NCBI GenBank assembly: GCA_046291735.1
Contig: JBKBSK010000007.1
Location: 85,288 to 149,287 of the forward strand
Origin: Candidatus Thermochlorobacter sp.
GTDB taxonomy: Bacteria; Bacteroidota; Chlorobiia; Chlorobiales; Thermochlorobacteraceae
Length of the DNA: 64,000 bases
Reading direction: 5' to 3'
Made by a program: the position numbers and the translations under genes. This document shows positions 6,105-39,676 of the stretch, one piece after another. The stretch's first letter is position 1; each line of letters opens with the position of its first letter. The notes under the pieces were generated by a model that saw only the letters and a list, made by a program, of their open reading frames with translations, had not been told where the DNA came from and did no database searches.

Positions 6105-6189
6105 CTTAGATATGCACGCAAGGAGTTTATCAGTGAGTTTAATCAATGAGTTGAACTATAAACGAAAATCAAACTAACGAGCAAGCAAA

Positions 6190-10453: not shown

Positions 10454-10460
10454 GTCCCGT

Positions 10461-10517: not shown

Positions 10518-10641
10518 GCCGTTGTGTGAAAGAAAAGCGTGTGTAAAACTTAGAGCGAGGTGCAACAAGGTGGCGCATAAACTACAAAAAATCTTCTTAA
10601 ATTAGCGACTGCCAAAACGACAAAACCTTAACTTAATAAAA

Positions 10642-11175: not shown

Positions 11176-11348
11176 GAAAGCCGGTGCGACCGCTGCATGC
11201 GATGCTGCCGGTCGTGCCGCTGCATGAAAATTGAGCGCTCTTCTTTATCGCTGCTACTAAGAAGCGATGAGACACTCTCGCACCCGAAAAAAAGCACCAC
11301 GAGCAGCAGCATGAAAAAGCCGAAAAGGGCAAGCAAAACAGTTTCCAT
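11172..11348 (-). CDS. possible small membrane protein (58 aa)
   Basis: An ATG is preceded by GGGAGGAATT (strong SD). One hydrophobic helix (METVLLALFGFFMLLLVVLFF) is followed by a basic His/Arg/Gln tail. No homology recognised. Confidence 0.3.
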   Translation of the reverse strand: METVLLALFGFFMLLLVVLFFGCESVSSLLSSSDKEERSIFMQRHDRQHRMQRSHRLS

Positions 11349-11445
11349 AATTCCTCCCAACTAAAAGTTTCTCCTGCTTTGTAGACTTTACGAACAGAGC
11401 GTATAAATTCTTCACGCTCAGGAGAACAAACTCGAAAAACTCAGA

Positions 11446-13173: not shown

Positions 13174-13191
13174 AGGTTGAACGCAAAAAAA

Positions 13192-13222
13192 GTGTAGCCA
13201 AACCCCATCGATTTGGCTACAC
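13192..13222. terminator. bidirectional hairpin between convergent ggt and dapA
   Basis: Perfect 11-bp stem gtgtagccaaa / tttggctacac with a 9-nt loop. An A-run lies upstream. Confidence 0.65.
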
Positions 13223-13243
13223 CAATGTATTTCAAGGTAAGTG

Positions 13244-14155: not shown

Positions 14156-14249
14156 AGTGATGGTTTATTTCGAGAGATGAAAGTTTTACACGCCGAATTT
14201 AAGCCGTAATTTTGCGAAACGAAAAACCAACGCTGTATTTTTTTTCAAC

Positions 14250-14723
14250 ATGCCTGAAAGAGAAGCCCGACCGATGTCATACTCGCGCGTCGAGATGACA
14301 CAAATTGTCACACCAGTCGATACCAACTATCTTGGCAATTTAGCTGGCGGCAGATTGATGCACTGGATGGATTTAGCCGCAGCCATTGCAGCAGGTCGAC
14401 ACTCGCAAGCAATTTGCGTAACGGCATCTGTCGATACAATGGAGTTTCGTCAAAGCATTCAGTTAGGCGAAGTTGTAATTATCAAAGCCAATGTCAATCG
14501 CGCGTTTCATACCTCAATGGAAGTGGGCGTGAAAGTCTATGCTGAAAACATCATTAAAGGGCACATTCGCGAGTGCACCAAAGCCTACTTCACCTTTGTA
14601 GCCATTGATAAAGAGGGTAAGCCCGTTCCAGTACCTGAGGTCATTCCAGAAGATGAGACCGACAGGCGCCGTTACGAAAAAGCTGCACTGCGTCGACAAA
14701 TCCGCTTGCTCAACAGAGGCTAA
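14250..14723 (+). CDS. acyl-CoA thioesterase (hotdog fold, YciA/BFIT-like)
   Basis: Single hotdog domain (VTPVDTNYLGNLAGGRLMHWMDLAA...SVDTMEFR). The start could instead be the internal Met at 14274. Confidence 0.85.
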   Translation: MPEREARPMSYSRVEMTQIVTPVDTNYLGNLAGGRLMHWMDLAAAIAAGRHSQAICVTASVDTMEFRQSIQLGEVVIIKANVNRAFHTSMEVGVKVYAENIIKGHIRECTKAYFTFVAIDKEGKPVPVPEVIPEDETDRRRYEKAALRRQIRLLNRG

Positions 14724-14749
14724 GAGCTAATGGCGCTACAATCAAATGC

Positions 14750-16834
14750 CTAATACTTTGCTAGCTTGAGTGCCGCCTCAAAGACCTTGTGCTCATTGGG
14801 TAAAATTTCGGTCTCCAGAACTTTTGAGAAGCCAACTGGTGTGTCAAGTGAGCCGACGCGCATGATAGGTGCATCGAGATATTCAAAGCAGTGTTCGGCA
14901 ATTAGCGCTGCAATTTCACCGCCAAAGCCACCTGTGAGTTTATCTTCATGAACAACGAGAGCCTTGCTGGTCTTTTTAACAGTTGCAAAAATTGCCTCTT
15001 TATCGAGCGGTGCAAGCGAGCGCAGGTCTAAGACTTCAGCGGAAATGCCGTGCTCCTTTTCCAACTTTTCAGCAGCAAAAAGCGCATGGTGGACAGTCGT
15101 GCCATAAGAGATAATTGAAAGGTCTGTGCCGTAGCGACGGTAACGGGCTTTGCCGAAGGGAATGAGAACATCGGGGCGAAGTTTAAGGGTTTTCGCCCAA
15201 GGGTTGTTGTAGAGAAATTTTGGCTCTAAGATGACTGTAACGCCACGTGTGCGAAAAGCAGAGCGCAGCAAGCCTTGCATGTCGTCTGCAAAAGCCGGCA
15301 CCACAATGCGCAAGCCGGGCAACGTGATAAAGGCGCCCTCGACATTTTGCGAATGATAAAGTCCGCCGCCAATGTATCCACCAGAGGCAATACGCATCAC
15401 GATGTTGGGTACAAACTTCCCTTTCGTGCGCCAGTATTCATGTGAGCATTCGACCACTTGTTCCATGGCGGGCCAGATGTAGTCGGCAAATTCTGCGCCC
15501 TCAATCAACACCCAGATGTCTTCACGATAGCGTGAAAAGCCGTTTGCTGTGCCGACAATAAAATCTTCGGCAATTGGCGCATTAAAAACACGACGCGGTC
15601 CATACTTTTGTGGCATGCCCTTGTCAGCATTGAAAATCCCGCCTTTGCCGACATCTTGTCCCCAAAGAAAAGTGTGCTCATTACGGTCAAATTCTTCGTG
15701 TTGAGTTTGATTGATGGCTTGGAGAAGACTAATAGTTTCGTCGGTGTAGAGCACGTGCGGACCTTGCGGTTCGCTAAGGTCATGCACCTCGCCGCCAGTA
15801 GGCTTAAACTCGGGCCAGACATAGAGCGTGGCTGATTTAGGGTCGGGCAAGGGGGCACGCTCGGCGCGTTCGGCAGCTTCAGCAATGTGATGATCATTCT
15901 CGCGCTCAATGGCTTCCAGTTCGGCAGCCGTGAAAATTTGTTTTTCGAGCAGGAAATTTCTGAACTTCGGCAGCGGGTCGCGGGCTTTGGCAGCCTCGAG
16001 CTCTTCGTGCGTGCGATAAAGAAAATGATTGTCAGAATTCGAGTGAGAGCCAATGCGCTCACAATCAGCTTCAACAAGCGCAGCACCTTTGCCCGATTGC
16101 ACAAACGCAATAGCTTCTTGCATGGCGCGCCAAGAATCAAAGACATCCGTGCCGTCACAGAAAATCACATGCAAGTTTGGAAAACTACGAAAAAGTTCTG
16201 CTGGATGCTCCGTTGCAAATTGCTCACGCACAGGGACTGAAATGCCAAAACGATTGTTTTGAAGCACGAACACAACGGGTAAAATTTCGCGTGAGGCACC
16301 ATTGATGGCTTCGTAGAAATATCCTTCTGCGCTTGCCGATTCGCCGCCAGAATAAAATGCAATTTCATCGCCGCCATACTTCTTGATAGCACGAGCAACG
16401 CCAACAGCATGTTGTGCATGATTACCTGTGAGCGAAGAGACATTCTGAATGCGAATCTCGGGCTTGGCAAAGTGATTGGACATGTGCCGACCGCCACTGG
16501 CAACATCTGCGTCGCGCGAAAGCCCATTGAGCAAAATTTCCTCTGCGCTAATTCCCGCAGCAAGTGCCGTGAGCATATCACGATAGTATGGGAAAAGAAA
16601 ATCTTTGCTCGGACGAAACGATAAGCCCAAAGCAAGCTGAATGCCGTCGTGCCCTTGATACGGCGCGTGATACGACCAGCCCATGCCTTTTTTGAGATAC
16701 CCTGCCGCTTTCAGATCAAGCTGACGCCCCAAATGCATCAAGCGATACCACTGACGCAGCATTGCAACATCAACGCCAGCAGGAAGTGTATCTGTGGAAA
16801 GTGAAAGGTGAGATGCTGTGACGTGCTTCGTCAT
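14750..16834 (-). CDS. fused 2-oxoacid dehydrogenase E1 component (alpha+beta in one chain)
   Basis: The N-terminal half is E1-alpha-like (TPP region YSGGESASAEGYFYEAINGAS..VLQNNRFGIS). The C-terminal half is E1-beta/transketolase-like (FNAPIAEDFIVGTANG, LDLRSLAPLDKEAI). Confidence 0.9.
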   Translation of the reverse strand: MTKHVTASHLSLSTDTLPAGVDVAMLRQWYRLMHLGRQLDLKAAGYLKKGMGWSYHAPYQGHDGIQLALGLSFRPSKDFLFPYYRDMLTALAAGISAEEILLNGLSRDADVASGGRHMSNHFAKPEIRIQNVSSLTGNHAQHAVGVARAIKKYGGDEIAFYSGGESASAEGYFYEAINGASREILPVVFVLQNNRFGISVPVREQFATEHPAELFRSFPNLHVIFCDGTDVFDSWRAMQEAIAFVQSGKGAALVEADCERIGSHSNSDNHFLYRTHEELEAAKARDPLPKFRNFLLEKQIFTAAELEAIERENDHHIAEAAERAERAPLPDPKSATLYVWPEFKPTGGEVHDLSEPQGPHVLYTDETISLLQAINQTQHEEFDRNEHTFLWGQDVGKGGIFNADKGMPQKYGPRRVFNAPIAEDFIVGTANGFSRYREDIWVLIEGAEFADYIWPAMEQVVECSHEYWRTKGKFVPNIVMRIASGGYIGGGLYHSQNVEGAFITLPGLRIVVPAFADDMQGLLRSAFRTRGVTVILEPKFLYNNPWAKTLKLRPDVLIPFGKARYRRYGTDLSIISYGTTVHHALFAAEKLEKEHGISAEVLDLRSLAPLDKEAIFATVKKTSKALVVHEDKLTGGFGGEIAALIAEHCFEYLDAPIMRVGSLDTPVGFSKVLETEILPNEHKVFEAALKLAKY

Positions 16835-16926
16835 AACTTACTCCTTTTTGTTTTTTTGTGAGGGAGACCTAAACAAACTGAAATTTAAACAAAAACAGCA
16901 ATTTTATACGAGATTTTGAGGTCTGA

Positions 16927-18006
<1,080 letters not shown>

Positions 18007-25121: not shown

Positions 25122-27836
25122 TTGACTTTGAAAGTTACACGATATATCCTTTTGGCTGTTCTGCTGTGCATAATTTCTCTCAAGGTTCAAGCGCAAAGTG
25201 GCATCATTACGAATGCGCTGCCGCCTAGTACGCTCCTAATCAGTGATCGAGAGTTTCTGAACGATCTTTTAGCAAAGGATCGTTATCTGGCGCTTGCCTA
25301 TGAAAATTTGGTAACACTCTCGGCGGATTTTCAAAAAGAGCCGCCAGCAGTTGAGCGTCTACGCGCTATCCGTGTTGAAGGTTTTGGGCATTTAGAAGGA
25401 GAGCAAGGTGAATTCCACAATTTCCAAACCAAAGCAGAATATGAGCGCTTCTATCAGTTCGCGCGCTATCAAAGTGTGCGCAATGAACTTAATGCGTATA
25501 GAAAGAGTCTGTTAGCCAGTGCACCACGCTCAACGCTCGAAAAAGCCCTGCGCCTCGATCTAAAAAGTGCAACCGTGCGCTACGAAAAAGGTGACTATCC
25601 AACAGCAAGACTCTACTTCGAAGATATCTACGAGACCTATAGCCCATACTTCAGAAACCTTGATGATGTGCTCTACCTTCAAGCAGAGTCGAACTTTGCA
25701 ATGAAAGCGTTTGTGGAGGCAAAAAAACTCTATGAGCAATTGCTGCTCACGTTTCCGACATCGCAGTATGCGCCCTATGCGGTGCAGCGTGTGCTGTTTG
25801 TAAGCTATGTCTATAACGACGCAAAGCAGTTCCAAAGAGATTTTCGCAAGTATAAGCCCTACCTTAAGTTGGAAAATGAGCAGGACTTCAATGCTTTGCT
25901 CATTGCAGGAACGATGGACTATCGCAATCAGCAATACGCTCGCGCCATTGAGACGCTCTCGCAAATTCCAGATCGTGCGGAAGCTAAACTAATGGCGGAC
26001 TTTGCAATGGGGCTTGCACACCTTGAACTCAAAGAGATAAACGAAGCAGAAAAGAAGTTTCGTAGAATTTTAGGACAGCCATACTTACCTTGGGATACAA
26101 AGCTCAAAGATGTCAGAAACGCTGCAGCGATTCAGCTAGCGCACATTCACTATATGAGAGGCACGAAATTTTTAGATGAAGCACGACGGTTTTACACGGG
26201 TGATGAGAAAGAGCGTGCTCAGGCAGACTCTGCGCTGCAAGCAGACTTGCGCGAACAGGTAGCAGGTCAGCAAATTAGTGTTTATCAAAGACAGTTAATT
26301 GAGATTCTGAAAAAAATTGAAGTGCAGGATACCTCAGTAGTCAATCTTGGCAAAAAGTTGGAAAGCGAAATTTCCGCTGTTTCCACTTCTGAGCAAGAAT
26401 TGCGCCGTTTTAATGAGGAGTTGAGACAACAAGCTGAAAATCTGGACGCTGCAAAGGAAGGGATTGACCGCATTAGGGAGGAATTAGCGGCTGCGCAAGA
26501 AGAAGGGCGCTTGGCGGCTGAACAGATTGAACGAATGAGAGCAAAACTTGCGCGCGCCCAAAGAGAAGTGCTCTTCCAACGCTTTAATCTCTACCGCAAC
26601 TTTGCCTTTGCTGAATTTGCGATGGCAGAAAACTATTTTAACGAAGTCAGCCGAGGTAGCCCGGACAAAGACCTTGCAGAATTAGGGCGACTTTGGACAC
26701 AGTTTAAGACTGGTAAGTATAGAGAAACCAGAGCTGAGATTGAGGATTACTTCAAGAAGTTCCGAATGTCGGAAAATCTCTATCAAGCCATGTTCCTTGC
26801 AGGCTACATGACACAAGCAAAGTATCCACAAGACCCGAACTACGCTAGCAAGGATTATAACTTTGTGTTCAATGGTTACACGGCATTGCAGTATGTAGAA
26901 AAATTCCTTGCAAAGAAAGCACAACTGAGGCAACACCTTCTAAATGTGCAGTTGGTTGCTGCCTCATCCAACAATCCAAGCGAAGTTGCTGCGGCTACTG
27001 AAATAAGTAATGATATCACTAGAGCGATAGAGTTACTTAAAATTGATCGACGTGCGGTTACTAGCTCTGAGACGGGTTTGGTGGCAGACGAGCGAAAACC
27101 AGCGTTAGAAGAACTGGCAAACAAACTCAGTGCAGCATCGGGAGCGGGGAACTCGACCATAAAAAGCTCGGCTGATGCAGCAAGTACAGCGATAAAGCAA
27201 ATTTTGGAACTTGCAACGCAATCTGTCTCAAATGAAACACGGCTCTTTCTGACACATGCACCGCTTCTGGTAACTGGAGAACTTTCGGACTACCGCAAAA
27301 ACTTGGAGTTCTACAAAAAGGTTGCGCAAGAGGAAGTTGTTCGTGCTGAAGAGTTGATCACGCGATTGCAGCCAGCATCTAATGTGAGTGATGCGCGTCA
27401 GCAACTGTTGAGTAGTTACTACTTGAACACCGCAAAGGCGTTGCGCACCACAGCTAGCGCAATTTTGACAGCGCTCCATCAAAAAGAATTTTTCGGTGAA
27501 GAAACCATTGAGCGTGCAGGCACAGTTGGACAATACGCAGTGAGTGCACTAACTTACGACGAAGTAAAGAAACGCCGAGATCAGGTCAAGGCTTACGAAA
27601 AGGTTGTTGGCTACTTCAAGACATCCGTCAAAAAGAAGATTAGCCAGTTAGAACTCTTCTTAGAGCAAATTAAAAAAGAAGAGCAAGGTACCGCCGTCAT
27701 AGTGGTAACCAAAGCAGATCTCTTGCAAAAAGAGTTTGAAGAAGTACTAAACGATTTTAGAAAAGCGTTTTTTATCGGCACAGACTATCTGAAACTGTCG
27801 CGTCAATCAGAGCAAAAGAAAGTGCTGTTGCCGTAG
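25122..27836 (+). CDS. secreted coiled-coil + TPR protein (CpoB/YbgF-like architecture, much enlarged)
   Basis: Signal peptide (..SLKVQAQS). YbgF/BamD-like TPR hairpins (LLLTFPTSQYAPYAVQRVLF) and a long central heptad-like region (about aa 380-480, EQELRRFNEELRQQAENLDAAKEGIDRIREELAAAQEE...). TTG start; TTG 25128 has better spacing from the AGAGG. Confidence 0.85.
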   Translation: MTLKVTRYILLAVLLCIISLKVQAQSGIITNALPPSTLLISDREFLNDLLAKDRYLALAYENLVTLSADFQKEPPAVERLRAIRVEGFGHLEGEQGEFHNFQTKAEYERFYQFARYQSVRNELNAYRKSLLASAPRSTLEKALRLDLKSATVRYEKGDYPTARLYFEDIYETYSPYFRNLDDVLYLQAESNFAMKAFVEAKKLYEQLLLTFPTSQYAPYAVQRVLFVSYVYNDAKQFQRDFRKYKPYLKLENEQDFNALLIAGTMDYRNQQYARAIETLSQIPDRAEAKLMADFAMGLAHLELKEINEAEKKFRRILGQPYLPWDTKLKDVRNAAAIQLAHIHYMRGTKFLDEARRFYTGDEKERAQADSALQADLREQVAGQQISVYQRQLIEILKKIEVQDTSVVNLGKKLESEISAVSTSEQELRRFNEELRQQAENLDAAKEGIDRIREELAAAQEEGRLAAEQIERMRAKLARAQREVLFQRFNLYRNFAFAEFAMAENYFNEVSRGSPDKDLAELGRLWTQFKTGKYRETRAEIEDYFKKFRMSENLYQAMFLAGYMTQAKYPQDPNYASKDYNFVFNGYTALQYVEKFLAKKAQLRQHLLNVQLVAASSNNPSEVAAATEISNDITRAIELLKIDRRAVTSSETGLVADERKPALEELANKLSAASGAGNSTIKSSADAASTAIKQILELATQSVSNETRLFLTHAPLLVTGELSDYRKNLEFYKKVAQEEVVRAEELITRLQPASNVSDARQQLLSSYYLNTAKALRTTASAILTALHQKEFFGEETIERAGTVGQYAVSALTYDEVKKRRDQVKAYEKVVGYFKTSVKKKISQLELFLEQIKKEEQGTAVIVVTKADLLQKEFEEVLNDFRKAFFIGTDYLKLSRQSEQKKVLLP

Positions 27837-27906: not shown

Positions 27907-28689
27907 ATGGCAAAAAAGAATAAGTTGTTTCTTTGGGCGATTATCATCTTGTCAGCAGTTGTATCGTTTGTGCTGTATTACGGAGTTTTTGGTCCTGCAC
28001 CCAAAGGATCTGTGCTGCATAACTTGTATGAAGGCGGACCACTTGTAGCGGTGCTTATGGCAAATATCTTGATTCTCATTATCGTGGTAACTGAGCGCGT
28101 GATTGCTTACAATAAAGCAAATGGTAAAGGGAATCTGGAAAAACTTCTTAAAGAAGTCAAGCAAGATTTGGAAAGAGGAGCAATCAACGAAGCGCTGCAA
28201 AAGTGCGAAAAACACAACAGCGCAGTGTCGACCTCAATTATGAGCGGCTTGGAACGCTACCGTTCGCTCGATGAAGTGGAGCCGCGCTTCAATGCTAAAA
28301 TTCAAGAAGTGCAAAAAGCTATCGACGAGGCGGCTAACTTTGAATCTGCACAGTATGAGACAAACCTCACACCAATCAAAACGATTGCGACCATTGCAAC
28401 GCTGATCGGTCTGATGGGTACAACAATTGGTATGATTCGCGCTTTTAACGCACTTGCTGAATCAGGCGGTACGCCAGACCCAGCGAAACTCTCAGGTGCT
28501 ATCTCTGAGGCACTCTACAACACTGCCGGCGGTCTTTTTGCTGCCATCTTAGGCACAGTGGCTTATAACTACTTCAAAGCTGAGATCGACAGCTTCACCT
28601 ACTTCATTGATGAAGCGGCCTTTGAAGTGATTCAAACCCTGACAATCTCACGTCGTAACCTTATTTCGGAACGTGAGCGTGCACAGTAA
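27907..28689 (+). CDS. exbB: MotA/TolQ/ExbB-family proton channel
   Basis: GGAGG SD. Family motifs IATIATLIGLMGTTIGMIRAF and ISEALYNTAGGLFAAI, with an extra N-terminal helix. Confidence 0.92.
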   Translation: MAKKNKLFLWAIIILSAVVSFVLYYGVFGPAPKGSVLHNLYEGGPLVAVLMANILILIIVVTERVIAYNKANGKGNLEKLLKEVKQDLERGAINEALQKCEKHNSAVSTSIMSGLERYRSLDEVEPRFNAKIQEVQKAIDEAANFESAQYETNLTPIKTIATIATLIGLMGTTIGMIRAFNALAESGGTPDPAKLSGAISEALYNTAGGLFAAILGTVAYNYFKAEIDSFTYFIDEAAFEVIQTLTISRRNLISERERAQ

Positions 28690-28760: not shown

Positions 28761-29261
28761 ATGAACTTCTTCGGATTTTTTATGCATGGCGGCGATGAAA
28801 TCGACCTCGCCCCACTCGTTGATATTGCCTTCTTGCTCCTCACCTTCTTTATGATGACTACGGTGTTTAGAGCGACTGATAAAATTCAAGTCGAGACACC
28901 GCAATCTAATTCTGCAGCAAAAGAACCTACGAAACGCTATGTCATCGTGACGGTCTCTGACAGCACAGATAAGCATGACACGCAGGTGGTCGTAAATATG
29001 GACGAGTACAAAGTGCGTGTTGTTGCTTTTCAAGGTACGCCCTATGAGCGCGAAGCAACAGGCACAGATGGTGTGCTGCTGAAGGACTGGAGGAAAGAAA
29101 TCTATGAAATTCTGCTGCGTGCGCGTCAAGCCGATCCTGGTCAGACCATTGTACTGAAGGCAGATAAAAATGCGAAGTTTAGCATTGTCAACGAAGTGAT
29201 GATTAAAATGAAGGAAGTAAAGTTCGATCAGGTTCAGATGATCACAAAAATGGAGCAGTAA
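28761..29261 (+). CDS. exbD: ExbD/TolR-family protein (paralog 1)
   Basis: IDLAPLVDIAFLLLTFFMM carries the conserved TM Asp, followed by a periplasmic alpha/beta domain (VLKADKNAKFSIVNEVM). Confidence 0.9.
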   Translation: MNFFGFFMHGGDEIDLAPLVDIAFLLLTFFMMTTVFRATDKIQVETPQSNSAAKEPTKRYVIVTVSDSTDKHDTQVVVNMDEYKVRVVAFQGTPYEREATGTDGVLLKDWRKEIYEILLRARQADPGQTIVLKADKNAKFSIVNEVMIKMKEVKFDQVQMITKMEQ

Positions 29262-29306: not shown

Positions 29307-29906
29307 ATGGCCGAGGCAACTAGCGATAAGGGACGCACTATAAAAATCAACATGCGCGAAGGAAAAACTAATGCGCAAGCCCGAAAAATCAAGAAGTATA
29401 ACGAGAAAAGCGATGAAACGTCCCATGTCGACCTTGCACCGATGGTGGACATTGCGTTTCTGCTGCTCACGTTCTTTATGCTTACCACATCGTTTGCGAA
29501 ACCTAATGTGTTTCAGATGGGATTGCCCGAACCTCCAAAACCAAATGCAGCACCAAGTGCAGTTGATCCGAGGCTGATGCTAACGCTGCAGGTGTCCAAA
29601 TCAGGTAAAGACGGCGTATTTATGCTCAGAGGTATCGAGAAAGAAGGCAATCAGCCAGCCTATACGAAGTTTGAGGAGGTGCGTGCAAAAGTACAAGCAA
29701 TCCGTGATGAGATACAGAAGGACCCAAACCTAAGCAAATACGATGTGGTAACAGCGATAAAAATTCATCCTGATGCGAAGTATGAAGATATGATTGAAGT
29801 CATGAATGAGGTCTTCGACGCAGGCGTGCGCAAGTGGGCAACAGTAGAACTTAAGCCCGATGAGGCAAAGAAGCTAGAGGAACTCGAAGAGAAAGTCAAG
29901 AAGTGA
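29307..29906 (+). CDS. exbD: ExbD/TolR-family protein (paralog 2, basic N-terminal extension)
   Basis: VDLAPMVDIAFLLLTFFML carries the TM Asp. It has a 40-aa Lys/Arg-rich N-terminal extension and a periplasmic domain (AIKIHPDAKYEDMIEVMNEV). Confidence 0.9.
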   Translation: MAEATSDKGRTIKINMREGKTNAQARKIKKYNEKSDETSHVDLAPMVDIAFLLLTFFMLTTSFAKPNVFQMGLPEPPKPNAAPSAVDPRLMLTLQVSKSGKDGVFMLRGIEKEGNQPAYTKFEEVRAKVQAIRDEIQKDPNLSKYDVVTAIKIHPDAKYEDMIEVMNEVFDAGVRKWATVELKPDEAKKLEELEEKVKK

Positions 29907-29945: not shown

Positions 29946-30947
29946 ATGAAAACAAGAACAAGCGAACTCGGCTCGCAGGTTGCGCTAAGGTGGTACGCTG
30001 AGAAGCCTTTTGCATATAAGATCCGTGAAGAGTATCAGAAGCGAATGACGATTGGCTTCATACTTGGCGCATCGCTCTTTGCTGCTGCGATTTTATCCTA
30101 TTTCATCTCTGGAGCGCTGTCAGGAGGCGAAGTAATCGAAAAGCGCAAACCCGTAGTGATCAATGTTGCTGCTGATCCACCACCGCCACCATCTGAAGTA
30201 CAAAAACAAGATGTGGCTGAAGCAAGCACAGGTGGAGATATTGGCGGGGAATCTGTTGTAACTTCAAGCCAAGCGGCGGCAGTCTCCGAAGCGGTCTCAG
30301 CTGGCGTGGAAGCTGCCTTAGGTGAAGCGCTGGCGTCAGGATTACTGGCTGAAGCAAGTTCAGGTATTCCCACTGCAATGGAAGGTGCAACTGGCGATGC
30401 CGGATTTTTGGGCAGTACGTCGGCAGGCGGATTGAGAGGTTTGGGCTCAGCAGGAGTTGGAGGGCTTGGAAGCACTGGCCTCGGCGGTGGCGATGGTTCA
30501 GGTATCGGATTCGGTGGACAAGGTGCGGGTAGCGGATTGGGCGGACCCGGTAGTGCATCAGGATTAGGTGGCGGCGGCGGCAAGGGCTTAGGCGTGGGAC
30601 GATCAGGCAAACTGGCACTCAACACAAATTTTGCTAAACTTAATGTGGGCTCGGGCGGACGAAGCAAAGAAGAAATTGCGGCTGTCATCAAAGCTAATCA
30701 GCCCGCTGTGTACGCATGCTACGCCGAAGCCCGCCAAGCTGGCGACATCAAAGGTAATATGGTGATTCGCGTGCTCATTGCCCCAGACGGTGCCGTACGT
30801 GATGCACAAGTTGTCAAAACCTCTATCGCAAACCAGAACATGCAGAGATGTATCGTAGGAAAGATGCGCCGCATGAAGTTCAAAGCGATTAGTAGCGGTA
30901 CAATCCAGCAGGTCGATATTCCCTACGATTTCAGCGATGCAGAGTAA
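29946..30947 (+). CDS. TonB-like membrane-anchored protein with Gly/Ala/Ser-rich linker and AgmX/PglI-type two-Cys C-terminal domain
   Basis: One N-terminal TM, a short PPPPPPS, then about 130 aa of A/S/G low complexity (GLGSAGVGGLGSTGLGGGDGSGIGFGG...). The C-terminus is EEIAAVIKANQPAVYACYAEA..GDIKGNMVIRVLIAPDGAV..AQVV.TSI.NQNMQRCIVGKMRRMKF......QVDIPYDF. The domain call is from memory. Confidence 0.75.
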   Translation: MKTRTSELGSQVALRWYAEKPFAYKIREEYQKRMTIGFILGASLFAAAILSYFISGALSGGEVIEKRKPVVINVAADPPPPPSEVQKQDVAEASTGGDIGGESVVTSSQAAAVSEAVSAGVEAALGEALASGLLAEASSGIPTAMEGATGDAGFLGSTSAGGLRGLGSAGVGGLGSTGLGGGDGSGIGFGGQGAGSGLGGPGSASGLGGGGGKGLGVGRSGKLALNTNFAKLNVGSGGRSKEEIAAVIKANQPAVYACYAEARQAGDIKGNMVIRVLIAPDGAVRDAQVVKTSIANQNMQRCIVGKMRRMKFKAISSGTIQQVDIPYDFSDAE

Positions 30948-31066: not shown

Positions 31067-34000
31067 ATGAGAAAATCGTGTCGTAACATAATTATGCTGC
31101 AAAAGTTGTATTTCTCTTGTCTTGCTGCACTCATGCTATTCTTCCCTCCCATAGCTGAATCAAAAGAGAAAAGCAAGGAGCCGATTGATACCGCTAGAGT
31201 AATGGCTGAACAAGAGCGGTTGGTGGTCCTTTCCAGTATGGTCCCAAGGAATTTTCTGACTGCAAAAACAGGTGATGCCGTCACTGACAACATTTTTTCT
31301 AGTTACACTGTCCCTCAAATCCAAGTGATGCTAAGCGAATACGAGAAAAAACTCGAGCGCAGCAAGGTCCAAAAACAACGTATCACGGATATCGGCTTGG
31401 AAATTGGGGAGCAATTTCTCAAGATATTTCCCGACAGCAAGGTAATCGACGAAGTGGCCATACGCTATGCAGACTTGCTCTATGAAAAAGTCTCGGATGA
31501 GTTCTATAGCAAATACGCCATATACACTGAAGAGCTGCGTAAGTACCTCAGCTCACCTGAATACGAGCAATATGTGATTGCAGAAGCGCGATACGATTCT
31601 ATTGCAGCCGCTGGAGGAGACACCATACGCAATCCACGACCGACACCACCACTGGGTCGACCAATTGCACCCGATCCACAGCTCGATCGCGTAATTGCCC
31701 TTTATGACAAAATCATCAACGATATGCCTGAAAGCCCGTATGTCGTTGATGCTATCTATAATAAAGCCTATATCTTGGGCGAGCGATATGGAGACTACCG
31801 TGCCCTAAGAAACCTCAGCGCACGCGACATTAGGCAACGCAAAGAGGAAGCGATTGCACTGCTTCAGCAACTGATACGTAAATACCCCGATAGCCGCTAC
31901 ACGACTGATGCCTATGTGCTCATCGGTGAGTATCTCTTCAGTGCGCCAAACCGAGAACAGCCTGCTAAAACGCGTGAAGCTATACCCTACTATCGAAAAG
32001 TGCTTGACCTAATTCTCAAAACTGGTCAGCGCTCTGAATACTACAATCAAGCACTCTACAAGTTAGGCTGGTGCTACTTCCGACTGGAAAATTATCCAGA
32101 AGCCGTTGCCTATTTTACTCAGCTCATTGAGGATATTGAGCAAGCTGAAGAAATCTTCAGCGGCAAAATTATGCCCGACTACATTCGCCCCGACATGAAA
32201 AAGGAAGCAATTGAGTACATTGCGGCTTCCTTTATAGAAGAACAAAATCGGATTGACCGAAGCAAAACCGCAATTGAGCGCATTGATAAATTCTACTCTG
32301 CGATGCCGCCACGTCGGTACATTCCCCTTGTCTATGAAGAAGTAGGCAAAAAGTATGAAGAACTGTTGGAAAGTGCAGAGAAGATCAACGAAGTTTGGAT
32401 GGCGCTGCTGAAAAGATTCCCTAATTATGAGCGCGCACCCTTCATTGCCGATAAGGTGATTTACCAACTTAACTTGGTGACGATAAACGGCGAAAAGAAA
32501 GAGAAAGAACTTGAAGAGGCTGAGCAGAAACTTTATGAAGAGAGAAAAAATCTTTTCTACAACTACGGCAGAAAGAGCAAATGGTATGCGGATATGAAAC
32601 GCCGTATCCAAGCGCAAAATCTGGGTATTCCGTTAGATTTCAAAGATCAAAGTGTATTCACGACAGGCTTCGACCCAAGAACATTAGAGTATGCAGACAG
32701 TATCTCTAAAGTTGCACTGTTCCAGAATATTGTCTATGCAATTAGCTTCGCACGGTTGCTCGATGGCGAGCTGCCACTGCCACTCGGAAGAGAGTATATG
32801 CAGCCGAATATTCCTGACTTGAAGCGTGCTAAGGTGTTCTATGAGCAAGCGGTAAAAGATATCGAAAATTACACGGAAATCTTCTCGCGCTACGACTCCA
32901 CTGCTTACATGGCGCAGTTCCAACGCTCCCTGATCTTGGATTTTAAGCTCAACCGTCCAAAAGAAGCGCTGCCAGGCTATCTTAGCGTCGCCAAAAACTT
33001 TGCGTGGGATTACCACCGAAAAGAAGCTATCGGAAACGCCTACGCTATCATTGATTCAATTGCACGCGCCGAAAAAATAGGCTTTTACACACCGGGCATT
33101 GATACCACTGCAAACTTCTCGGGCAAACGCGACTCACTGAAAACCGACGAAAAGACATTTTTGGAGATTGTCGATGCTTACATTCGTCTCTTCCCGCACG
33201 ATTCTATCAGCGTCAATGGAATCAAGCAACTGGCGGACTTCTACATTGCTAAAGGATATGTCGATGAGTATAAAGAAGTTAATTCGCGCTTAGCGCTCTA
33301 CTACCCCGTTCAGGAAATCTACCCGGGGACACTTGTCAATCTTGCCGCAAACGCATACGAACTTAAAGATTACACGCGAAGTGAGCAAATTGCAAAGGCG
33401 ATTTACTACGGACGACGCACAAAAGACCCCAAAGATGCAGAGCGACGTGCCTACGCCTACCGCTTGATCGGTAGTTCTATTGACAAGCGCGCACAGTATT
33501 ATGTCGGCAAAGAGAACTACTACGCCGCTGCAAAAGAATATGAGCGCATCACGAAAGAAGTGCCGAAGTGGGAAGAAGCAGACAAAGCCGCACGCAACGC
33601 TGCATTCTACTATGTTAAGGCGGGCAGGACTGAAGAGAGTGTCAAAATGAGTAACTACCTCTTTGAGAACGCAAACGACCCCAAGTTTAAAGTTGAAGCG
33701 CTCAAAGATATTACATTTGCCTATGAACAAGCTAAAAATTTCGATAGCCTTGGCTCATCGCTGGAGCGACTTTATGAATTTGTGAAAGCAGATTCTATAG
33801 ACCTTGCAGAAGACGCACTCTATCGCGCAATTCGCGCCAGAATGGCTGCAGAGAACTGGAAGGAAGCAATTCGCGTCTCCGATAAGTATCTTGGAAAATT
33901 TGATACCACACGCCGCGGTGATGATGTTGCCTTCAATAAAATTGACTTGAATATCAAAGATGGCAGACCAGAAGGAGTCTTCGAAGCCTATGGTGCATAT

Positions 34001-37000
34001 GCCGATAAATTTGTCAACAAACCTCGCAGCGTCTTAGCCTACTTCAAGCGCGGTGAAATTTTGGAAGAACGCGGCAATATCGAAGGTGCAAAAGCAGAAT
34101 TTACGAAAGCGACAGATCGCTACTATGAACTTGCCAAGAAAGATGAAAAAAATACGAAAGCAGTCGCAGGTATTTCAGCCAGCGAAAGCATGTTTCGTCT
34201 GACCAGATACTTGCTTGATGATTACAAGAAAGTCGGGGTTGGTGTAACCCTGAAGCCAAGTGCATTTGTTGCGCCACCAAAACCAAAGAAGCAACGCGAA
34301 CAGCCTACACGTATCACGGCTCCAAAGAAACAAACTACCGCAGCAAAGAAAAAGCCGGCTGCTAAACCAGTACCGCCGCCAAAACCGAAAGAGCGCGATG
34401 TGGCGTATGATACGACAGCGAAATATGCGCTGAGAAGAAAAATTGAAAAGAATATCCTTGAGCTCTATAAGCTCGGCGGCTATCGCTCTATCGACGCGCT
34501 CTACAACGCAGGATTTGTCGCCGAAAATCTGGCTGACGCATTTAGCAAAATTCCTGATACACTCGCCTCTATCCGAGATCCAAAAACCGGTAAAGGCATT
34601 ATCCCAGCAAAGCTAACCACCAATCAGGTGCAGGCTAATGTGGATGCCGCAGCCTTCTATGAGCGCGCAGGCAATGACTATGCGAAAACATTTTTAGATC
34701 TAAGTGCTGCAAGAGGAGAATTTGAGAAATCCGCAAAAGACCTTGACTCGGCTAAAAAAGCCTTGCTCAACCCGAATGATTCTGCGACAGTTGCGCTCCG
34801 CGAAGCCGTGGCAAGTATTGGTAAAGTAACTAACCGCGAGCAAGGAGAACTTGCAATTGCAAAGCTTGTGCCACCTACCGAAAAATGGATTTCAAAAGTC
34901 GGTATAAGCAACGGCTTGGATGTCCCCGACGATGTCTTCCTTGTAACAATTGATGCAACGACAGAGGTCGCAAAATCAAAAATTTCTGAAATGTACTACA
35001 AGGCAGGTAAGCTCGCCGAAAAAAATGTCTATACCTACCTTGCCGCAGAAGCCGATGAAGAAGCCAAGAAAACCTCTCGCACATTTGGAAGAGGGAAAAA
35101 CAAAATCGTGGTTGAACTCGGCGATGTGGTAGAACTCGTGCAACTCTCACAAATTGCACAGAGATTTGTCAGACCCGCTGCAGAAATCGCAATCAATACC
35201 TACCGACGCGGCATTGAAAAGGCAGAGAAATTAAAACTGCAAAATCAGTATGTTGATATGGCAAGGGCGGCAATCAACGAACTAGCTACGAAAGCCGTCG
35301 AACGCAGCGATTCACTTGCCAGAGCCTCCAATGCTTTGTTTGACAAGTTAGATAAGCAATACCGTGAAAAACTCGATAATTTGACAGGTCAGCCAAAAGC
35401 AAAGGATATTGTAGACTTTACAGTGCTGGCATCAAAGATGAACTTTATCATCAAAACGAATTATGAACTGACACTAAGCGCACTTGCTGAATATGGACAA
35501 GCCTTGCAATTGCTCAAAGATGCTAACGCACCGCAGAATCGATACAATGAAGTTGCCACGCGCGCCTCTCGCTTTATCTACGAAATGGGTGAAGGCAATC
35601 GTCAGCGCGCAGAAGTGCTGAAGAGAACGGTGAAACAATGGGATGAACTGTCCAAAGCCAACCCTGACAAGTTCTGGTACTCCGATTACGGCTCGATTAA
35701 GTATGAACCTATTGCGAATACCTATCAGCAAAGTGCAGGAGCAATTCTGGCGCAGGTCGTGGCACTGCTCGTAGACTTTGAAATTCAAGATGAATACACC
35801 AGCAAATCCTTACTCTCACTTGGCAAAATTGACCCAACGCTCTCCAAGATTATCGGTAAGAAAGGTGAAACTACAATTACCTCATCTGGTGGAAATGAGT
35901 GGAAAGTTATCGAACAAATTGAGCCGGGTAAAGAATACGACTGGTTCAGACGCGACTACAGCGATGCGGCTTGGAAACCAGTGGTAGAAAATGATGAAAC
36001 GCAGCGCTTTAAGTATTTCATCAGAGAAACCGACACAACCTTTGCCACCAAAGATTTAGATACGCCAGCAAGAGCTATCTGGTATGAACGCGTTGTGCCC
36101 GGTGCGCAACCAGCGCCAGAAAAGAAGGAAGAACCAAAGAAAGAAGAGCCTAAGAAAGAAGAACCAAAAGGCGAAGAAACTAAAAAGGAAGAACCAAAGA
36201 GCGAAGAACCAAAGAAAGAGGGTGAGCAACCTGCTGCTGAACCCAAAGCTGAGCCAAATTACCTCTCAGTGGGTGAGACGATACTCATGAACCTAACCTT
36301 CGAGCCCGGGAAGGCAAAAATCACAGGCGGCACAGAAGGACTCGATAGCCTTGTAGCAAAGTTCAAGGAAGACAAAAATCTCGTCATGGAAATTACCCCA
36401 AGCGTCGTCTTGGATAGTGGCAGCAAAGTCAAGCCAGCGGCATTGGCAAAGCAGCGCTATGACGCCATTGTTAAAGAACTCACCGCAAAAGGGGTCAAGA
36501 AAACACAGCTCAAGCAAGGTAAATCCACCACCGATACGGTAACGACCTTCAAGGTGACGAAGTCGAGCCGTAAGACCGGCATGCTGAACCTGATGCCAAG
36601 CAAAAACCTTGCACGAGTGAAAGTATCTGTCTTCATTGCTGAACAGCACTTCACGCAAAAAGGCAAGAAAAAAAGGTCAAAAGATGACGAACTTAAAGAA
36701 AAGGTTGAAGGAGCGGTGAGCGCAATCAGCGGCATTACAGTAGAAGTAAAAAATGCAGTCGTAACACTCTCGGGCGAAGTCGCTGATGAAGCCGCAAAAG
36801 CGAGTGCTGAAAGTGCCGCAGCAGGGGTGAAAGGCGTAAAAAGTGTAGTAAATAATCTGACCGTTAGACCACCTGTTGCACAAGGACCCGTGAAACCTGA
36901 GTACGTCTACTTCCGCAAAGAATTTACCTTTGAAGGAGCAAAAGAAGTAGCACAGCTCATCATGACAAACGAGTTCCCCTTCGACTCGCTTGAAGTCTAT

Positions 37001-37303
37001 GTAAATGATACGCAAGTGGGAGCAGACAAAATTGTCAAGTTCAAGAATGTCTCGCCTGCTGATTCACTCTTGGATGAGAAATTCATCGTGCTGAACATCT
37101 ACGATTTTGTAACGCCCGGAAAAAATCTGATAGCAATTCGCGCCCCGGGAACTCTACCGAAGGGTGCTGGACTGAAAATTGCACTCAACATCGCTTATTT
37201 CGAAGAAATTAAAGAAAGCGACCTCAAAGCGCTGATTCCAAAGCTCAAAGAGTATCGCAAGAAGACCGAAAAGAAACTCGAGAAAGTCGAAAATCCACAA
37301 TGA
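31067..37303 (+). CDS. giant secreted multidomain protein: TPR array + Lys/Pro spacers + OmpA-C-like + BON + jelly-roll-like module
   Basis: 2078-aa ORF with a signal peptide (..LMLFFPPIAES). BamD/YbgF-like TPR hairpins (KYPDSRYTTDAYVLIGEY, YNQALYKLGWCYFRLENYPEAVAYF). K/P spacer at nt 34271-34392 and KKEEP repeats at 36119-36256. Degenerate OmpA-C-like stretch at about 36290-36600. BON domain at about 36685-36870 (VEGAVSAISGITVEVKNAVVTLSGEV..GVKGVKSVVNNLTV). C-terminal YVYFRKEFTF..LEVYVNDTQVG..GKNLIAIRA. An alternative start is ATG 31094. Confidence 0.9.
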   Translation: MRKSCRNIIMLQKLYFSCLAALMLFFPPIAESKEKSKEPIDTARVMAEQERLVVLSSMVPRNFLTAKTGDAVTDNIFSSYTVPQIQVMLSEYEKKLERSKVQKQRITDIGLEIGEQFLKIFPDSKVIDEVAIRYADLLYEKVSDEFYSKYAIYTEELRKYLSSPEYEQYVIAEARYDSIAAAGGDTIRNPRPTPPLGRPIAPDPQLDRVIALYDKIINDMPESPYVVDAIYNKAYILGERYGDYRALRNLSARDIRQRKEEAIALLQQLIRKYPDSRYTTDAYVLIGEYLFSAPNREQPAKTREAIPYYRKVLDLILKTGQRSEYYNQALYKLGWCYFRLENYPEAVAYFTQLIEDIEQAEEIFSGKIMPDYIRPDMKKEAIEYIAASFIEEQNRIDRSKTAIERIDKFYSAMPPRRYIPLVYEEVGKKYEELLESAEKINEVWMALLKRFPNYERAPFIADKVIYQLNLVTINGEKKEKELEEAEQKLYEERKNLFYNYGRKSKWYADMKRRIQAQNLGIPLDFKDQSVFTTGFDPRTLEYADSISKVALFQNIVYAISFARLLDGELPLPLGREYMQPNIPDLKRAKVFYEQAVKDIENYTEIFSRYDSTAYMAQFQRSLILDFKLNRPKEALPGYLSVAKNFAWDYHRKEAIGNAYAIIDSIARAEKIGFYTPGIDTTANFSGKRDSLKTDEKTFLEIVDAYIRLFPHDSISVNGIKQLADFYIAKGYVDEYKEVNSRLALYYPVQEIYPGTLVNLAANAYELKDYTRSEQIAKAIYYGRRTKDPKDAERRAYAYRLIGSSIDKRAQYYVGKENYYAAAKEYERITKEVPKWEEADKAARNAAFYYVKAGRTEESVKMSNYLFENANDPKFKVEALKDITFAYEQAKNFDSLGSSLERLYEFVKADSIDLAEDALYRAIRARMAAENWKEAIRVSDKYLGKFDTTRRGDDVAFNKIDLNIKDGRPEGVFEAYGAYADKFVNKPRSVLAYFKRGEILEERGNIEGAKAEFTKATDRYYELAKKDEKNTKAVAGISASESMFRLTRYLLDDYKKVGVGVTLKPSAFVAPPKPKKQREQPTRITAPKKQTTAAKKKPAAKPVPPPKPKERDVAYDTTAKYALRRKIEKNILELYKLGGYRSIDALYNAGFVAENLADAFSKIPDTLASIRDPKTGKGIIPAKLTTNQVQANVDAAAFYERAGNDYAKTFLDLSAARGEFEKSAKDLDSAKKALLNPNDSATVALREAVASIGKVTNREQGELAIAKLVPPTEKWISKVGISNGLDVPDDVFLVTIDATTEVAKSKISEMYYKAGKLAEKNVYTYLAAEADEEAKKTSRTFGRGKNKIVVELGDVVELVQLSQIAQRFVRPAAEIAINTYRRGIEKAEKLKLQNQYVDMARAAINELATKAVERSDSLARASNALFDKLDKQYREKLDNLTGQPKAKDIVDFTVLASKMNFIIKTNYELTLSALAEYGQALQLLKDANAPQNRYNEVATRASRFIYEMGEGNRQRAEVLKRTVKQWDELSKANPDKFWYSDYGSIKYEPIANTYQQSAGAILAQVVALLVDFEIQDEYTSKSLLSLGKIDPTLSKIIGKKGETTITSSGGNEWKVIEQIEPGKEYDWFRRDYSDAAWKPVVENDETQRFKYFIRETDTTFATKDLDTPARAIWYERVVPGAQPAPEKKEEPKKEEPKKEEPKGEETKKEEPKSEEPKKEGEQPAAEPKAEPNYLSVGETILMNLTFEPGKAKITGGTEGLDSLVAKFKEDKNLVMEITPSVVLDSGSKVKPAALAKQRYDAIVKELTAKGVKKTQLKQGKSTTDTVTTFKVTKSSRKTGMLNLMPSKNLARVKVSVFIAEQHFTQKGKKKRSKDDELKEKVEGAVSAISGITVEVKNAVVTLSGEVADEAAKASAESAAAGVKGVKSVVNNLTVRPPVAQGPVKPEYVYFRKEFTFEGAKEVAQLIMTNEFPFDSLEVYVNDTQVGADKIVKFKNVSPADSLLDEKFIVLNIYDFVTPGKNLIAIRAPGTLPKGAGLKIALNIAYFEEIKESDLKALIPKLKEYRKKTEKKLEKVENPQ
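36119..36256 (+). repeat. imperfect 15-nt tandem coding repeats (KKEEP-type spacer)
   Basis: Encodes EKKEEPKKEEPKKEEPKGEETKKEEPKSEEPKKEGEQPAAEPKAEP inside the giant ORF. Confidence 0.85.
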
Positions 37304-37312
37304 AGGAGAAGT

Positions 37313-37684
37313 ATGATGCGTAAACCATTTTTGCTGGCTGCACTAATCGGACTGCTAACCTTGACACTGGGCTCGGAGGAAGTATGGGCTCAAAAGCGCC
37401 CTAAAAAGGAAAAACAAAAAAAGACCGCAACAACAGAACGAAAAGCGAAAGACGTAGAAAGCATCACGCTCGATAAAATTGATATTACTTTCCGCGTACA
37501 AACACCAAAAGTCAAGTTCAACATTGAGCGCATGCCAATTGATGTGAAAACGGATCATGCACGCTTCGGCGACATCAGCAAGGAAACACAACTGCGCGGC
37601 GAAAGAACGTTGTACAGCAACCGCATCTATGAAAAACCGATGCAGGTTTCCCCACGAGATATTGTTAATCGTGAACGAGAATAA
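37313..37684 (+). CDS. small secreted basic protein (123 aa), hypothetical
   Basis: GGAG SD 9 nt after the giant gene stop, and a signal peptide (..GSEEVWAQ). Lys-rich N-terminus. No motif recognised. Confidence 0.7.
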   Translation: MMRKPFLLAALIGLLTLTLGSEEVWAQKRPKKEKQKKTATTERKAKDVESITLDKIDITFRVQTPKVKFNIERMPIDVKTDHARFGDISKETQLRGERTLYSNRIYEKPMQVSPRDIVNRERE

Positions 37685-39283: not shown

Positions 39284-39676
39284 ATGGCATACTTTCTATT
39301 GAAAACTGAACCTACCGAATACAGCCTCGAGATGCTCCAAACTGACGGCGAAACGGTTTGGAATGGCGTCAAGAACGCGCTAGCTCTCCAACATTTGCGC
39401 AAGGTCAAAACGGGCGATATGTGCTTTATCTACCACACAGGAAAGGAAAAGCAAATTGTAGGCTTAGGTGAAGCAACTTCAGATGTCTATACCGATAGCG
39501 ATGGAGCAGATGTTTTTAAAATCAAATTCAAGGAGAAATTTGTCACACCGCTTTCACTGGCAGAAATGAAAAAGGATAAGCACTTCGAGAACTTCGAGCT
39601 CTTGCGTTTGCCTCGTCTCTCTGTGATGCCTGTTGCGCCGGCACTTGCCGAATACATCTTGAAAAAGGTCAGATAG
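39284..39676 (+). CDS. EVE (PUA-like, DUF55) domain protein
   Basis: YFLLKTEP.EYS......G...W.GVKN..A..HLRKVK.GD.CFIYHTG matches the EVE-domain pattern as recalled. The ATG abuts the TPR gene stop. Confidence 0.82.
   Translation: MAYFLLKTEPTEYSLEMLQTDGETVWNGVKNALALQHLRKVKTGDMCFIYHTGKEKQIVGLGEATSDVYTDSDGADVFKIKFKEKFVTPLSLAEMKKDKHFENFELLRLPRLSVMPVAPALAEYILKKVR

Follow-up and report, generated by a model that had tools for sequence, protein, structure and literature searches.

A GltD/AgmU-family giant of Candidatus Thermochlorobacter with OmpA-like and BON modules between the two halves of a predicted jelly-roll head

Introduction

A 64,000-nucleotide stretch of Candidatus Thermochlorobacter sp. 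(contig JBKBSK010000007.1, positions 85,288 to 149,287; the whole stretch is called the window below, and all the coordinates given are its own) encodes a putatively secreted giant of 2078 amino acids (aa) whose C-terminal part raises an unusual question. An earlier note, made from the letters alone, had read there the motifs of a galactose-binding-like jelly roll interrupted by about 270 aa with an OmpA-C-like and a BON domain, and had recognised this architecture from no characterised protein. Do the two groups of motifs belong to one domain, and in which kind of machine would a domain with such a cassette work? As described here, the two groups of motifs are separated in the giant and its relatives by a connector of very variable length, and the protein belongs to the GltD/AgmU family and is encoded in a conserved operon with the components of a motor driven by the proton motive force, in which the cassette may serve as an anchor.

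Results

The two halves of the jelly roll and their connector

The gene for the giant (31067..37303, forward strand, as are all the features described below) is an uninterrupted open reading frame (ORF), identified from its intact frame, its orthologues and its N-terminal homology. The earlier note was right in this respect, continuous 2073-aa orthologues being found, and the motifs that it quoted are all present as described: DWFRRDYSD at aa 1625 (nt 35939), ARAIW at aa 1668-1672, a KKEEP run from aa 1682, LTFEPGKAK at aa 1743, the BON region from around aa 1873, EYVYFRKEF at aa 1945 and GKNLIAIRA at aa 2018.

The W-rich N-terminal half of the beta-sandwich (N-half; aa 1596-1676, 35852..36094, DWFRRDYSDAAWKPV ... 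ARAIW) and its C-terminal half (C-half; aa 1944-2048, 36896..37210, YVYFRKEF ... VYVND ... GKNLIAIRA ... LNIAYF) were assigned from an AlphaFold2 (AF2) model and from alignments of relatives, those of the N-half being to Bac_rhamnosid_N and to the structures 3w5m and 6t0q, with Foldseek in addition for the C-half. The model spans aa 1590-2078 (489 aa) and was built on the family alignment. In this model, the N-half shows six predicted strands with a predicted local distance difference test score (pLDDT) of 81-96, which exceeds 90 over aa 1610-1649, and the C-half is mostly above 90. The OmpA-like module and the BON domain were likewise modelled with confidence, unlike the spacers. The predicted template modelling score (pTM) was 0.54, a value that over 489 residues calls for a defined relative placement of several modules.

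The window copy of the jelly roll gave no Pfam match at E<=10. When the C-termini of its relatives were compared with Pfam (n=39), 13 matched Glyco_hydro_2_N and 11 matched Bac_rhamnosid_N, none of them reaching the gathering cutoff (best 21.8 bits vs. 25). A profile of the alignment of 24 short-form relatives (A3) matched in the PDB a Streptomyces rhamnosidase (3w5m, E 4.5e-12), a two-domain Pleurotus lectin (6t0q, 5e-8) and a Dictyoglomus rhamnosidase (6i60, 8e-8), and Foldseek searches with the 489-aa model retrieved the N-terminal jelly rolls of GH78 and GH2 enzymes (6gsz, 1.4e-4; 6d8k, 2e-4; 1yq2, 3.9e-4). Therefore, the similarity of the halves to GH78/GH2 jelly rolls is far beyond chance, and the galactose-binding-like fold that had been proposed is supported by profile and by structure, although the Pfam threshold was not reached.

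With respect to the order of the segments, the N-half of the relatives aligned to positions 128-161 of the 172 of Bac_rhamnosid_N and to the C-terminal W-rich strands of the CBM67-type domains in 3w5m and 6t0q, and the C-half to positions 4-63 of the same family and to positions 57-135 of the 169 of Glyco_hydro_2_N. Judging from these alignments, the order W-rich then YFRK is circularly permuted relative to Bac_rhamnosid_N/CBM67 and resembles that of the N-terminal domain of GH2 enzymes (GH2_N), so that the motif order announced as that of GH2 and rhamnosidase-type proteins stands for the former but is permuted with respect to the latter. The colinearity of the N-half with GH2_N is a resemblance suggested by the FDDSxW..VP motif and did not show in the HHalign comparison of A3 with E. 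coli GH2_N (the N-domains of LacZ, EbgA and UidA), in which the C-half alone was aligned with confidence (probability 81%; 17% in global mode). The connector would correspond either to a loop native to the GH2_N arrangement or to the point where the canonical CBM67 termini meet, and in both topologies it is a junction on the surface with no constraint on its length. An Asp-Asp pair acts as Ca ligand in the Ca-dependent sugar binding of CBM67 (PMC11512411, on the two-domain lectin from which the boundaries of CBM67 were also indirectly derived); its first Asp is kept in the 24 short-form relatives and its second one is not conserved, and in the window the pair aligns to E1969-F1970, as deduced from the alignment to the PDB matches.

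When the N-terminal 1080 aa of the giant were used as a query, about 30 proteins of 1442-1620 aa were retrieved, those with a named source coming from metagenome-assembled genomes (MAGs) of Calditrichaeota or Calditrichaceae, together with proteins of Chloroherpetonaceae at 47-49% identity. When homologues were sought with the C-terminal 488 aa, words from the BON domain and from low-complexity stretches filled the list of candidates, so that nothing but BON proteins came back, and a search with the A3 profile returned just seven fragments; the relatives were gathered by the N-terminal search plus an exhaustive search for the C-terminus. Both halves, in the form of SDxxW...W...FDDSxW...AIW and YFRKxF...YxN(D/G)...GxNxIA, were found in about 35 relatives and co-occurred in every full-length one. 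The length of the connector, measured between the AIW Trp and the YFRK Arg, was 22 aa in P0016 and P0036, 34-82 aa in the other forms of 1450-1620 aa, in which it is of low complexity and rich in D/S/T, 168-321 aa in Chloroherpetonaceae, 277 aa in the window and its orthologues and 838 aa in P0066. Thus, the predicted interruption of about 270 aa was found as a stretch of 277 aa, compared to 22 aa or 34-82 aa in the short relatives. It is not a one-off event either, as the comparison of sequences shows a hypervariable connector throughout the family, which in the various Chloroherpetonaceae is a landing pad for differing cargo.

The modules carried by the connector

Downstream of the N-half, the connector of the giant starts with a low-complexity KKEEP spacer of 59 aa (aa 1677-1735, 36095..36271; pLDDT <50), the run of which is at the DNA level a tandem repeat of 15/30 nt (36121-36219). 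An OmpA-C-like (Pal/MotB-like) alpha/beta module follows (aa 1736-1835, 36272..36571), which was assigned by a profile of nine copies, AF2 and Foldseek. The nine copies (alignment A1) comprise one from the window, one from P0064, six in tandem from P0066 and one from P0093. In the PDB, the top matches of this profile were all OmpA-like, headed by PorE (6top, E 4e-4) and followed by the OmpA proteins of Salmonella and Capnocytophaga, YiaD, MotB and Pal. The AF2 model of the window module (pLDDT 78, pTM 0.70) has a beta-alpha-beta-alpha-beta-beta arrangement, and its 50 top Foldseek matches in the PDB were without exception OmpA-C, MotB, Pal or PorE domains (probability 1.0, TM scores of 0.5-0.65), with the top solved domains being 12-24% identical to it. 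Four residues are invariant in the nine copies (F1745, E1775, R1797 and G1809), and R1797 matches the Arg of the 'RA' motif. Pfam OmpA was matched by four of the nine copies (best E 2.5e-5). Thus, the OmpA fold call is right and the module is very divergent: the OmpA-C layout seen in the earlier note agrees with the fold and with the nine-copy profile, but the window copy by itself fails the Pfam threshold.

The next stretch (aa 1836-1871, 36572..36679), defined by the alignment of relatives, holds a strand-like element, ARVKVSVFIAEQHFTQ (aa 1849-1864, 36611-36658), and then a K-rich run. This element aligns in all the Chloroherpetonaceae-type relatives, shortly upstream of YFRK, and may be a partner-binding, TonB-box-like strand; the AF2 model has a pLDDT <50 for aa 1836-1866, the element included.

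The BON domain that had been called clear (aa 1872-1936, 36680..36874) scored above the Pfam threshold, and the fold agrees with it. PF04972 was matched at aa 1873-1935 with 50.6 bits in the whole protein and 54.2 bits in the C-terminal fragment (cutoff 27), the match by sequence in the PDB was OsmY (8rjx, E 1.2e-5), and this region of the AF2 model had a pLDDT >90 and retrieved in Foldseek OsmY (8rjx, E 1.8e-5) as the top match and DolP (7a2d, 5.9e-4). The NCBIfam models ArfA_OmpATb_N (E 2.4e-6), OsmY and Kbp match the same region. The documented roles of BON domains include phospholipid binding and chaperone activity. Behind the C-half, the giant ends in an amphipathic helix (aa 2049-2078, 37211..37300; helix in the AF2 model at aa 2050-2074), and this K/E-rich tail is conserved in all the Chloroherpetonaceae-type relatives.

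The comparison of these relatives revealed two insertion points, one upstream of the ARVKVSVFIAEQHFTQ element, which receives a linker and the OmpA-like module or modules, and another downstream of it, which receives the BON domain. The cargo differs with the lineage. The connector consists of a PQ-rich linker in P0065, which groups by sequence with the Chloroherpetonaceae forms, of around 320 aa of acidic, E/S/T-rich sequence in P0071 (L006, Chloroherpetonaceae PL23b_bin.36) and of a P/S/G-rich linker in the fragment P0111. One OmpA-like module is carried by P0093, from a bacterial contig in a mussel assembly, and six by P0066, from the Chloroherpetonaceae MAG GCA_033763895.1. The KKEEP spacer with one OmpA-like module and a BON domain is found in the Candidatus Thermochlorobacter lineage (window, L005 and P0064), and BON was detected among the relatives only in these three. 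P0093 (KAK3582180.1) has its database entry under the freshwater mussel Potamilus streckersoni and is actually bacterial, from a Chlorobiota-like contaminant contig; its gene model of 2439 aa fuses an upstream TonB-like gene to the giant.

Orthologues and selection

The closest genome was the MAG of Candidatus Thermochlorobacter aerophilum (L005), the giant of which is about 87% identical over the full length. Orthologues of 2073 aa are present in L005 and in L001/P0064, and the same continuous ORF of this length was found in two independent assemblies of this species (NCBI MAG PHFL01000072.1 and Logan SRR5207950); a scan with the single protein for related loci found two genomes only. By parts, identity to L005 was 88% in the scaffold, 49% in the KKEEP spacer, the length of which is unchanged, 83% in the OmpA-like module, 90% in the C-half and 93% in the C-terminal helix. 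As synonymous sites are saturated between both genomes, the proportions of nonsynonymous (pN) and synonymous (pS) differences are given here in place of dN/dS. While pS reached 0.78-0.91, pN was 0.06-0.14 in the folded modules, with 0.12-0.14 for the folded inserts (OmpA-like and BON); it was 0.075 in the scaffold, where pS was also saturated, and 0.34 in the KKEEP spacer. Each folded module is under purifying selection, and the low pN of the inserts compared to the spacer under saturated pS shows that selection maintains them and that the ORF is no artefact.

The scaffold and its operon

The giant begins with a putative Sec signal peptide (aa 1-32, 31067..31162; h-region LYFSCLAALMLFFPPIA, then AES|KE), recognised by eye in the sequence and kept as a region in P0064, by which the protein would be secreted. 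A lipoprotein reading was rejected because relatives do not keep the Cys of the signal region, and so was that of a type IX secretion system (T9SS) substrate, the C-terminus being a helix and not a C-terminal secretion domain; by sequence and Pfam, the giant has no outer-membrane barrel, T9SS C-terminal domain or lipobox. The helical scaffold with tetratricopeptide repeats (TPRs) occupies aa 33-1595 (31163..35851), with Pfam TPR_6/TPR_2 matches and sub-threshold NCBIfam matches of the YbgF/CpoB/BamD kind. The 'long TPR array' of the earlier note was loosely right, as TPRs score in Pfam solely at aa ~260-360 and the remainder of the N-terminal ~1590 aa is a helical scaffold. In the middle of it lies a low-complexity stretch rich in K/P/A, PKPKKQREQPTRITAPKKQTTAAKKKPAAKPVPPPKPKE (aa ~1085-1125, 34320-34440), which differs among relatives and swamps word-based homology searches.

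The giant is the sixth gene of a unit of seven. The first one encodes a weakly GltC-like TPR/coiled-coil protein of 904 aa (25122..27836; Pfam TPR_6), homologous to proteins at the same position in L002 (E 9e-91) and L003 (4e-16) and to the gltC-like gene of L007 (1.7e-4). It is followed by an ExbB/TolQ/AglR-type proton channel (27907..28689; Pfam MotA_ExbB 97 bits, NCBIfam tolQ E 7e-24, sub-threshold), two ExbD/TolR-type genes (28761-29261 and 29307-29906; Pfam ExbD 75 and 71 bits) and the gene for a membrane protein of 333 aa (29946..30947), a GltG/GltJ-like TonB-type transducer with an N-terminal transmembrane segment, a Gly-rich spacer and an AgmX/PglI C-terminal domain. This last protein was assigned with NCBIfam (NF033768, 68.1 bits, cutoff 40; gliding_GltG, E 1.2e-13; tonB_Cterm, 33.7 bits, cutoff 27.1) and is homologous to the GltG-like gene of L007. 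Its long spacer is rich in Gly/Ser/Ala (GLGGxG repeats, aa ~100-230), and several long spurious ORFs appear on the strand opposite to the G-rich stretch. The seventh gene, at the gltF position, starts 10 nt past the stop codon of the giant and encodes a secreted protein of 123 aa (37313..37684) without Pfam or NCBIfam matches; this place is also taken by homologues in L001 (64% identity), L002 (E 1.6e-19) and, weakly, L003, and the motif I.L(D/E)(K/A)I...P(K/Q)V is common to it and the protein at the gltF position of L007. Synteny is conserved in L002 and L003, and the same seven genes were found in a Chloroherpetonaceae MAG and, reordered, in the genome with the short form P0029.

The N-terminal 1080 aa of the giant match P0040 (E 1e-27, 90% of the query). 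P0221, a member of the P0040 cluster, is encoded between genes whose best NCBIfam matches are gliding_GltC, GltE and GltG, with mglB/mglA-like genes adjoining, that is, at the gltD position. The metagenomic contig L007, with mglB- and mglA-like genes (5644-6728) followed by a gltC-gltD-gltE-gltF-gltG-like row (7662-17076), bridges from the giant to GltD. No GltD model was among the NCBIfam matches, and the link to GltD is an indirect one, through P0040/P0221. Because its N-terminus matches P0040 and P0221 holds the gltD position, the giant qualifies by homology as a scaffold of the GltD/AgmU family and the operon as an instance of the Agl-Glt core complex. The earlier note had recognised its architecture from no characterised protein; the nested layout was not found in a literature search of limited coverage either, but the protein is not an orphan.

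Farther downstream, a gene for a stand-alone EVE-domain protein (39284-39676; Pfam 113 bits) lies directly behind that for a TPR protein of 393 aa and upstream of a TauE/SafE exporter; it is apparently unrelated.

Discussion

We consider it rather probable that the giant is the scaffold of a Tol/Ton-like machine driven by the proton motive force, that it carries a jelly-roll head and that the loop inserted in this head anchors the distal end of the scaffold to the wall or to a membrane. Besides ExbB and a pair of ExbD proteins, the machine would include a GltG-like transducer whose C-terminal domain is of the TonB type, and the giant would be its periplasmic scaffold of the GltD/AgmU type. In the family, this scaffold would end in a galactose-binding-like head whose strand groups are joined by a disordered, length-tolerant connector, which in Chloroherpetonaceae would have become the landing pad for extra sequence. 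With both halves folded into one sandwich, the insert would project from the head as a tethered loop, in which the OmpA-like module would hold peptidoglycan or a wall-associated partner and the BON domain would grip a membrane at its inner leaflet. In this way the scaffold would be held in the envelope at its distal end, a task that Pal, OmpA, MotB and PorE perform in other machines, and the motor, by way of the GltG-like transducer, would exert its force on a layer that stays in place. OmpA-like cargo recurs in three lineages, with one, one and six copies, which argues that modules of the wall type were selected at this site.

Several data weigh against this proposal. The window copy of the OmpA-like module reaches only 16.1 bits (E 0.015) on Pfam OmpA (PF00691), below the cutoff of 27.2, covering positions 1-87 of the 98 of the profile. 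In the HMM alignments to OmpA and PorE, the peptidoglycan-binding Asp of the (T/H)D motif aligns to V1780-V1781, and to K, E, F or Q in other copies; an Asp (D1783) lies two residues downstream of this pair, and the canonical Asn of the diaminopimelic acid (DAP) pocket is likewise not conserved. Given the several roles of BON domains, binding to a membrane is not certain. Three relatives (P0065, P0071 and P0111) have only low-complexity linkers at the insert site; therefore, the machine does not depend on an anchor at this point. Finally, the Agl-Glt core complex has been defined and is present in non-gliding bacteria, and no function is assigned to it outside Myxococcus (PMC3169522).

Wall or membrane anchoring competes mainly with drift at a tolerant loop, in which a permissive, disordered junction would gather repeats and domains as spacers or idle sequence, the OmpA-like and BON modules being passengers without a binding role. 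The extreme variability and mostly low-complexity content of the connector (PQ-rich, acidic, KKEEP), the recent DNA tandem repeat under the KKEEP run, the missing canonical OmpA Asp and the relatives devoid of folded cargo would all fit such drift. However, the folded inserts are under purifying selection (pN 0.12-0.14 vs. 0.34 in the spacer, pS saturated), the OmpA-like modules have been independently retained or amplified, with six in P0066 and one in P0093, and an Arg, a Glu, a Phe and a Gly are invariant over the nine copies, so we regard this explanation as rather unlikely. A different objection concerns the head itself. We infer that the two halves pack into one sandwich, because they always co-occur in the ~35 relatives with connectors down to 22 aa, both were modelled jointly with high confidence (pLDDT >90) and solved CBM67-type domains hold both segments, as in the lectin 6t0q/6t1d, where each of two carbohydrate-binding domains has one W-rich and one FRK segment in a single jelly roll (PMC11512411); moreover, with only one half (100 aa) present, the hydrophobic core of the jelly roll would lie exposed. 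If the halves did not reassemble, the W-rich fragment would be a remnant or a small domain in its own right, the C-half would form a truncated sandwich alone or together with another partner, and the cassette would simply lie between domains. The packing was not directly observed, HHalign aligned with confidence just the C-half to E. coli GH2_N, and the reversed order of the segments relative to Bac_rhamnosid_N/CBM67 could reflect remnants of a tandem array, but on balance we find such an arrangement improbable. That the gene is an error of assembly, or a chimera in which a frameshift has joined a TPR gene to genes with OmpA, BON and CBM domains, is so improbable as to be negligible: repeat-rich linkers do break assemblies, and P0009 and P0010 are truncated exactly within a PQ-rich linker, but the continuous 2073-aa ORF in two independent assemblies, the C-half and conserved tail in frame after the insert and the purifying selection across all modules speak against an artefact, and a gene fusion was rejected as the orthologues are intact. 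These two truncated MAG orthologues are annotated as 'partial'. The repetitive connector breaks short-read assemblies, and the C-terminal halves of the family should therefore be under-represented in databases.

The homology of the operon with the Agl-Glt core of Myxococcus invites two readings related to gliding. The head and the cassette could be located at or beyond the outer membrane as an adhesin, the substratum contact of a Chloroherpetonaceae gliding machine, for which speak the lectin-like fold of the head and the fact that Chloroherpeton thalassium glides, no machinery for this motility being named in PMC3362086. This is hard to reconcile with the lack of an outer-membrane barrel, T9SS C-terminal domain or lipobox, with OmpA-C and BON being periplasmic modules, with the presence of the same operon in short-form lineages, the core complex having been judged unlikely to power motility alone (Luciano et al. 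2011, PMC3169522), and with the CBM67 Ca-ligand pair, which is not intact (E1969-F1970 align to DD; PMC11512411); we thus hold an adhesin to be very improbable. Hardly less doubtful is a force-bearing role of the split domain, in which the cassette would be the wall/membrane 'foot' of an Agl-Glt-type gliding machine of Chloroherpetonaceae and aa 1849-1864 a TonB-box-like handle gripped through beta-augmentation by the TonB_C domain of the GltG-like protein; the strokes of the motor would pull directly on the peptidoglycan-anchored loop that passes through the lectin-like head.

The anchored scaffold that we favour can be compared with systems already described. Like the Agl-Glt core of M. xanthus, the operon encodes a TolQ/ExbB-type channel, two TolR/ExbD-type proteins, an AgmX/PglI TonB-like transducer, large periplasmic TPR scaffolds and a small secreted protein. 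Unlike the Glt transducer, that of the window lacks an FHA domain and has a Gly-rich spacer instead of a Pro-rich one, Pro-rich spacers being typical of TonB, TolA and GltG. The first 1080 aa of the giant have their homologue in a glt cluster, at the gltD position, but around 480 extra residues at its C-terminus, the jelly-roll head with nested OmpA-like and BON modules, set it apart from M. xanthus GltD, which has ~1190 aa, is all-helical, ends in a disordered C-terminus and has no beta-sandwich (PMC11761067). The head has in common with CBM67/Bac_rhamnosid_N (PF08531) and GH2_N (PF02837) the motifs FRKxF, YxNG, GxNxIA and FDDSxW. In contrast to both, it is attached to no glycosidase, its junction carries 22-838 aa across the family and its matches to the two Pfam models are sub-threshold, with none for the window copy; compared to CBM67/PF08531 the order of the segments is permuted and the second Ca-ligand Asp is not conserved.

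The OmpA-like module has the beta-alpha-beta-alpha-beta-beta arrangement, the invariant Arg of the 'RA' motif and the association with a Tol/Ton/Mot-type motor as in Pal, MotB, OmpA and PorE (6top), and PorE of the T9SS also joins TPR and OmpA_C in one periplasmic protein. It differs from them in its great divergence, in not keeping the Asp/Asn of the DAP pocket, in being nested in the connector of another domain and in its six tandem copies in one relative. The pairing of BON with a wall-binding domain is known from ArfA/OmpATb (Rv0899; BON plus OmpA-like) and from Kbp/YgaU (BON plus LysM). As in ArfA, BON stands beside an OmpA-like module in the giant, but in the reverse order (OmpA-like, then BON), with a single BON and embedded in a 2078-aa scaffold rather than in a small stand-alone envelope protein. 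A search of the literature, of limited coverage and thus weak as evidence, found no work in which GltD-type proteins are connected with Chlorobi or Calditrichaeota, nor any in which the nested architecture appears. Domain insertion is a common evolutionary event, and each part of the giant is already known (GltD-type scaffold, CBM67/GH2_N-type jelly roll, OmpA-C-like and BON), so that it is a lineage-specific variant and no new kind of system.

The Agl-Glt core complex is widespread, and the published model, in which GltG grips GltD as a central pillar in the periplasm, leaves open the relation of this pillar to peptidoglycan (PMC11761067). In this context, the repeated acquisition by the head of Pal/MotB-like modules, from one to six, and of BON is evidence, by comparison among relatives, that the scaffold works with its distal end at the wall or at a membrane, and supplies small, defined domains whose binding is testable. 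It also offers a predicted natural beta-sandwich with a junction between its halves that tolerates from 22 to 838 residues, folded domains included, which would be useful for studies of domain insertion and circular permutation.

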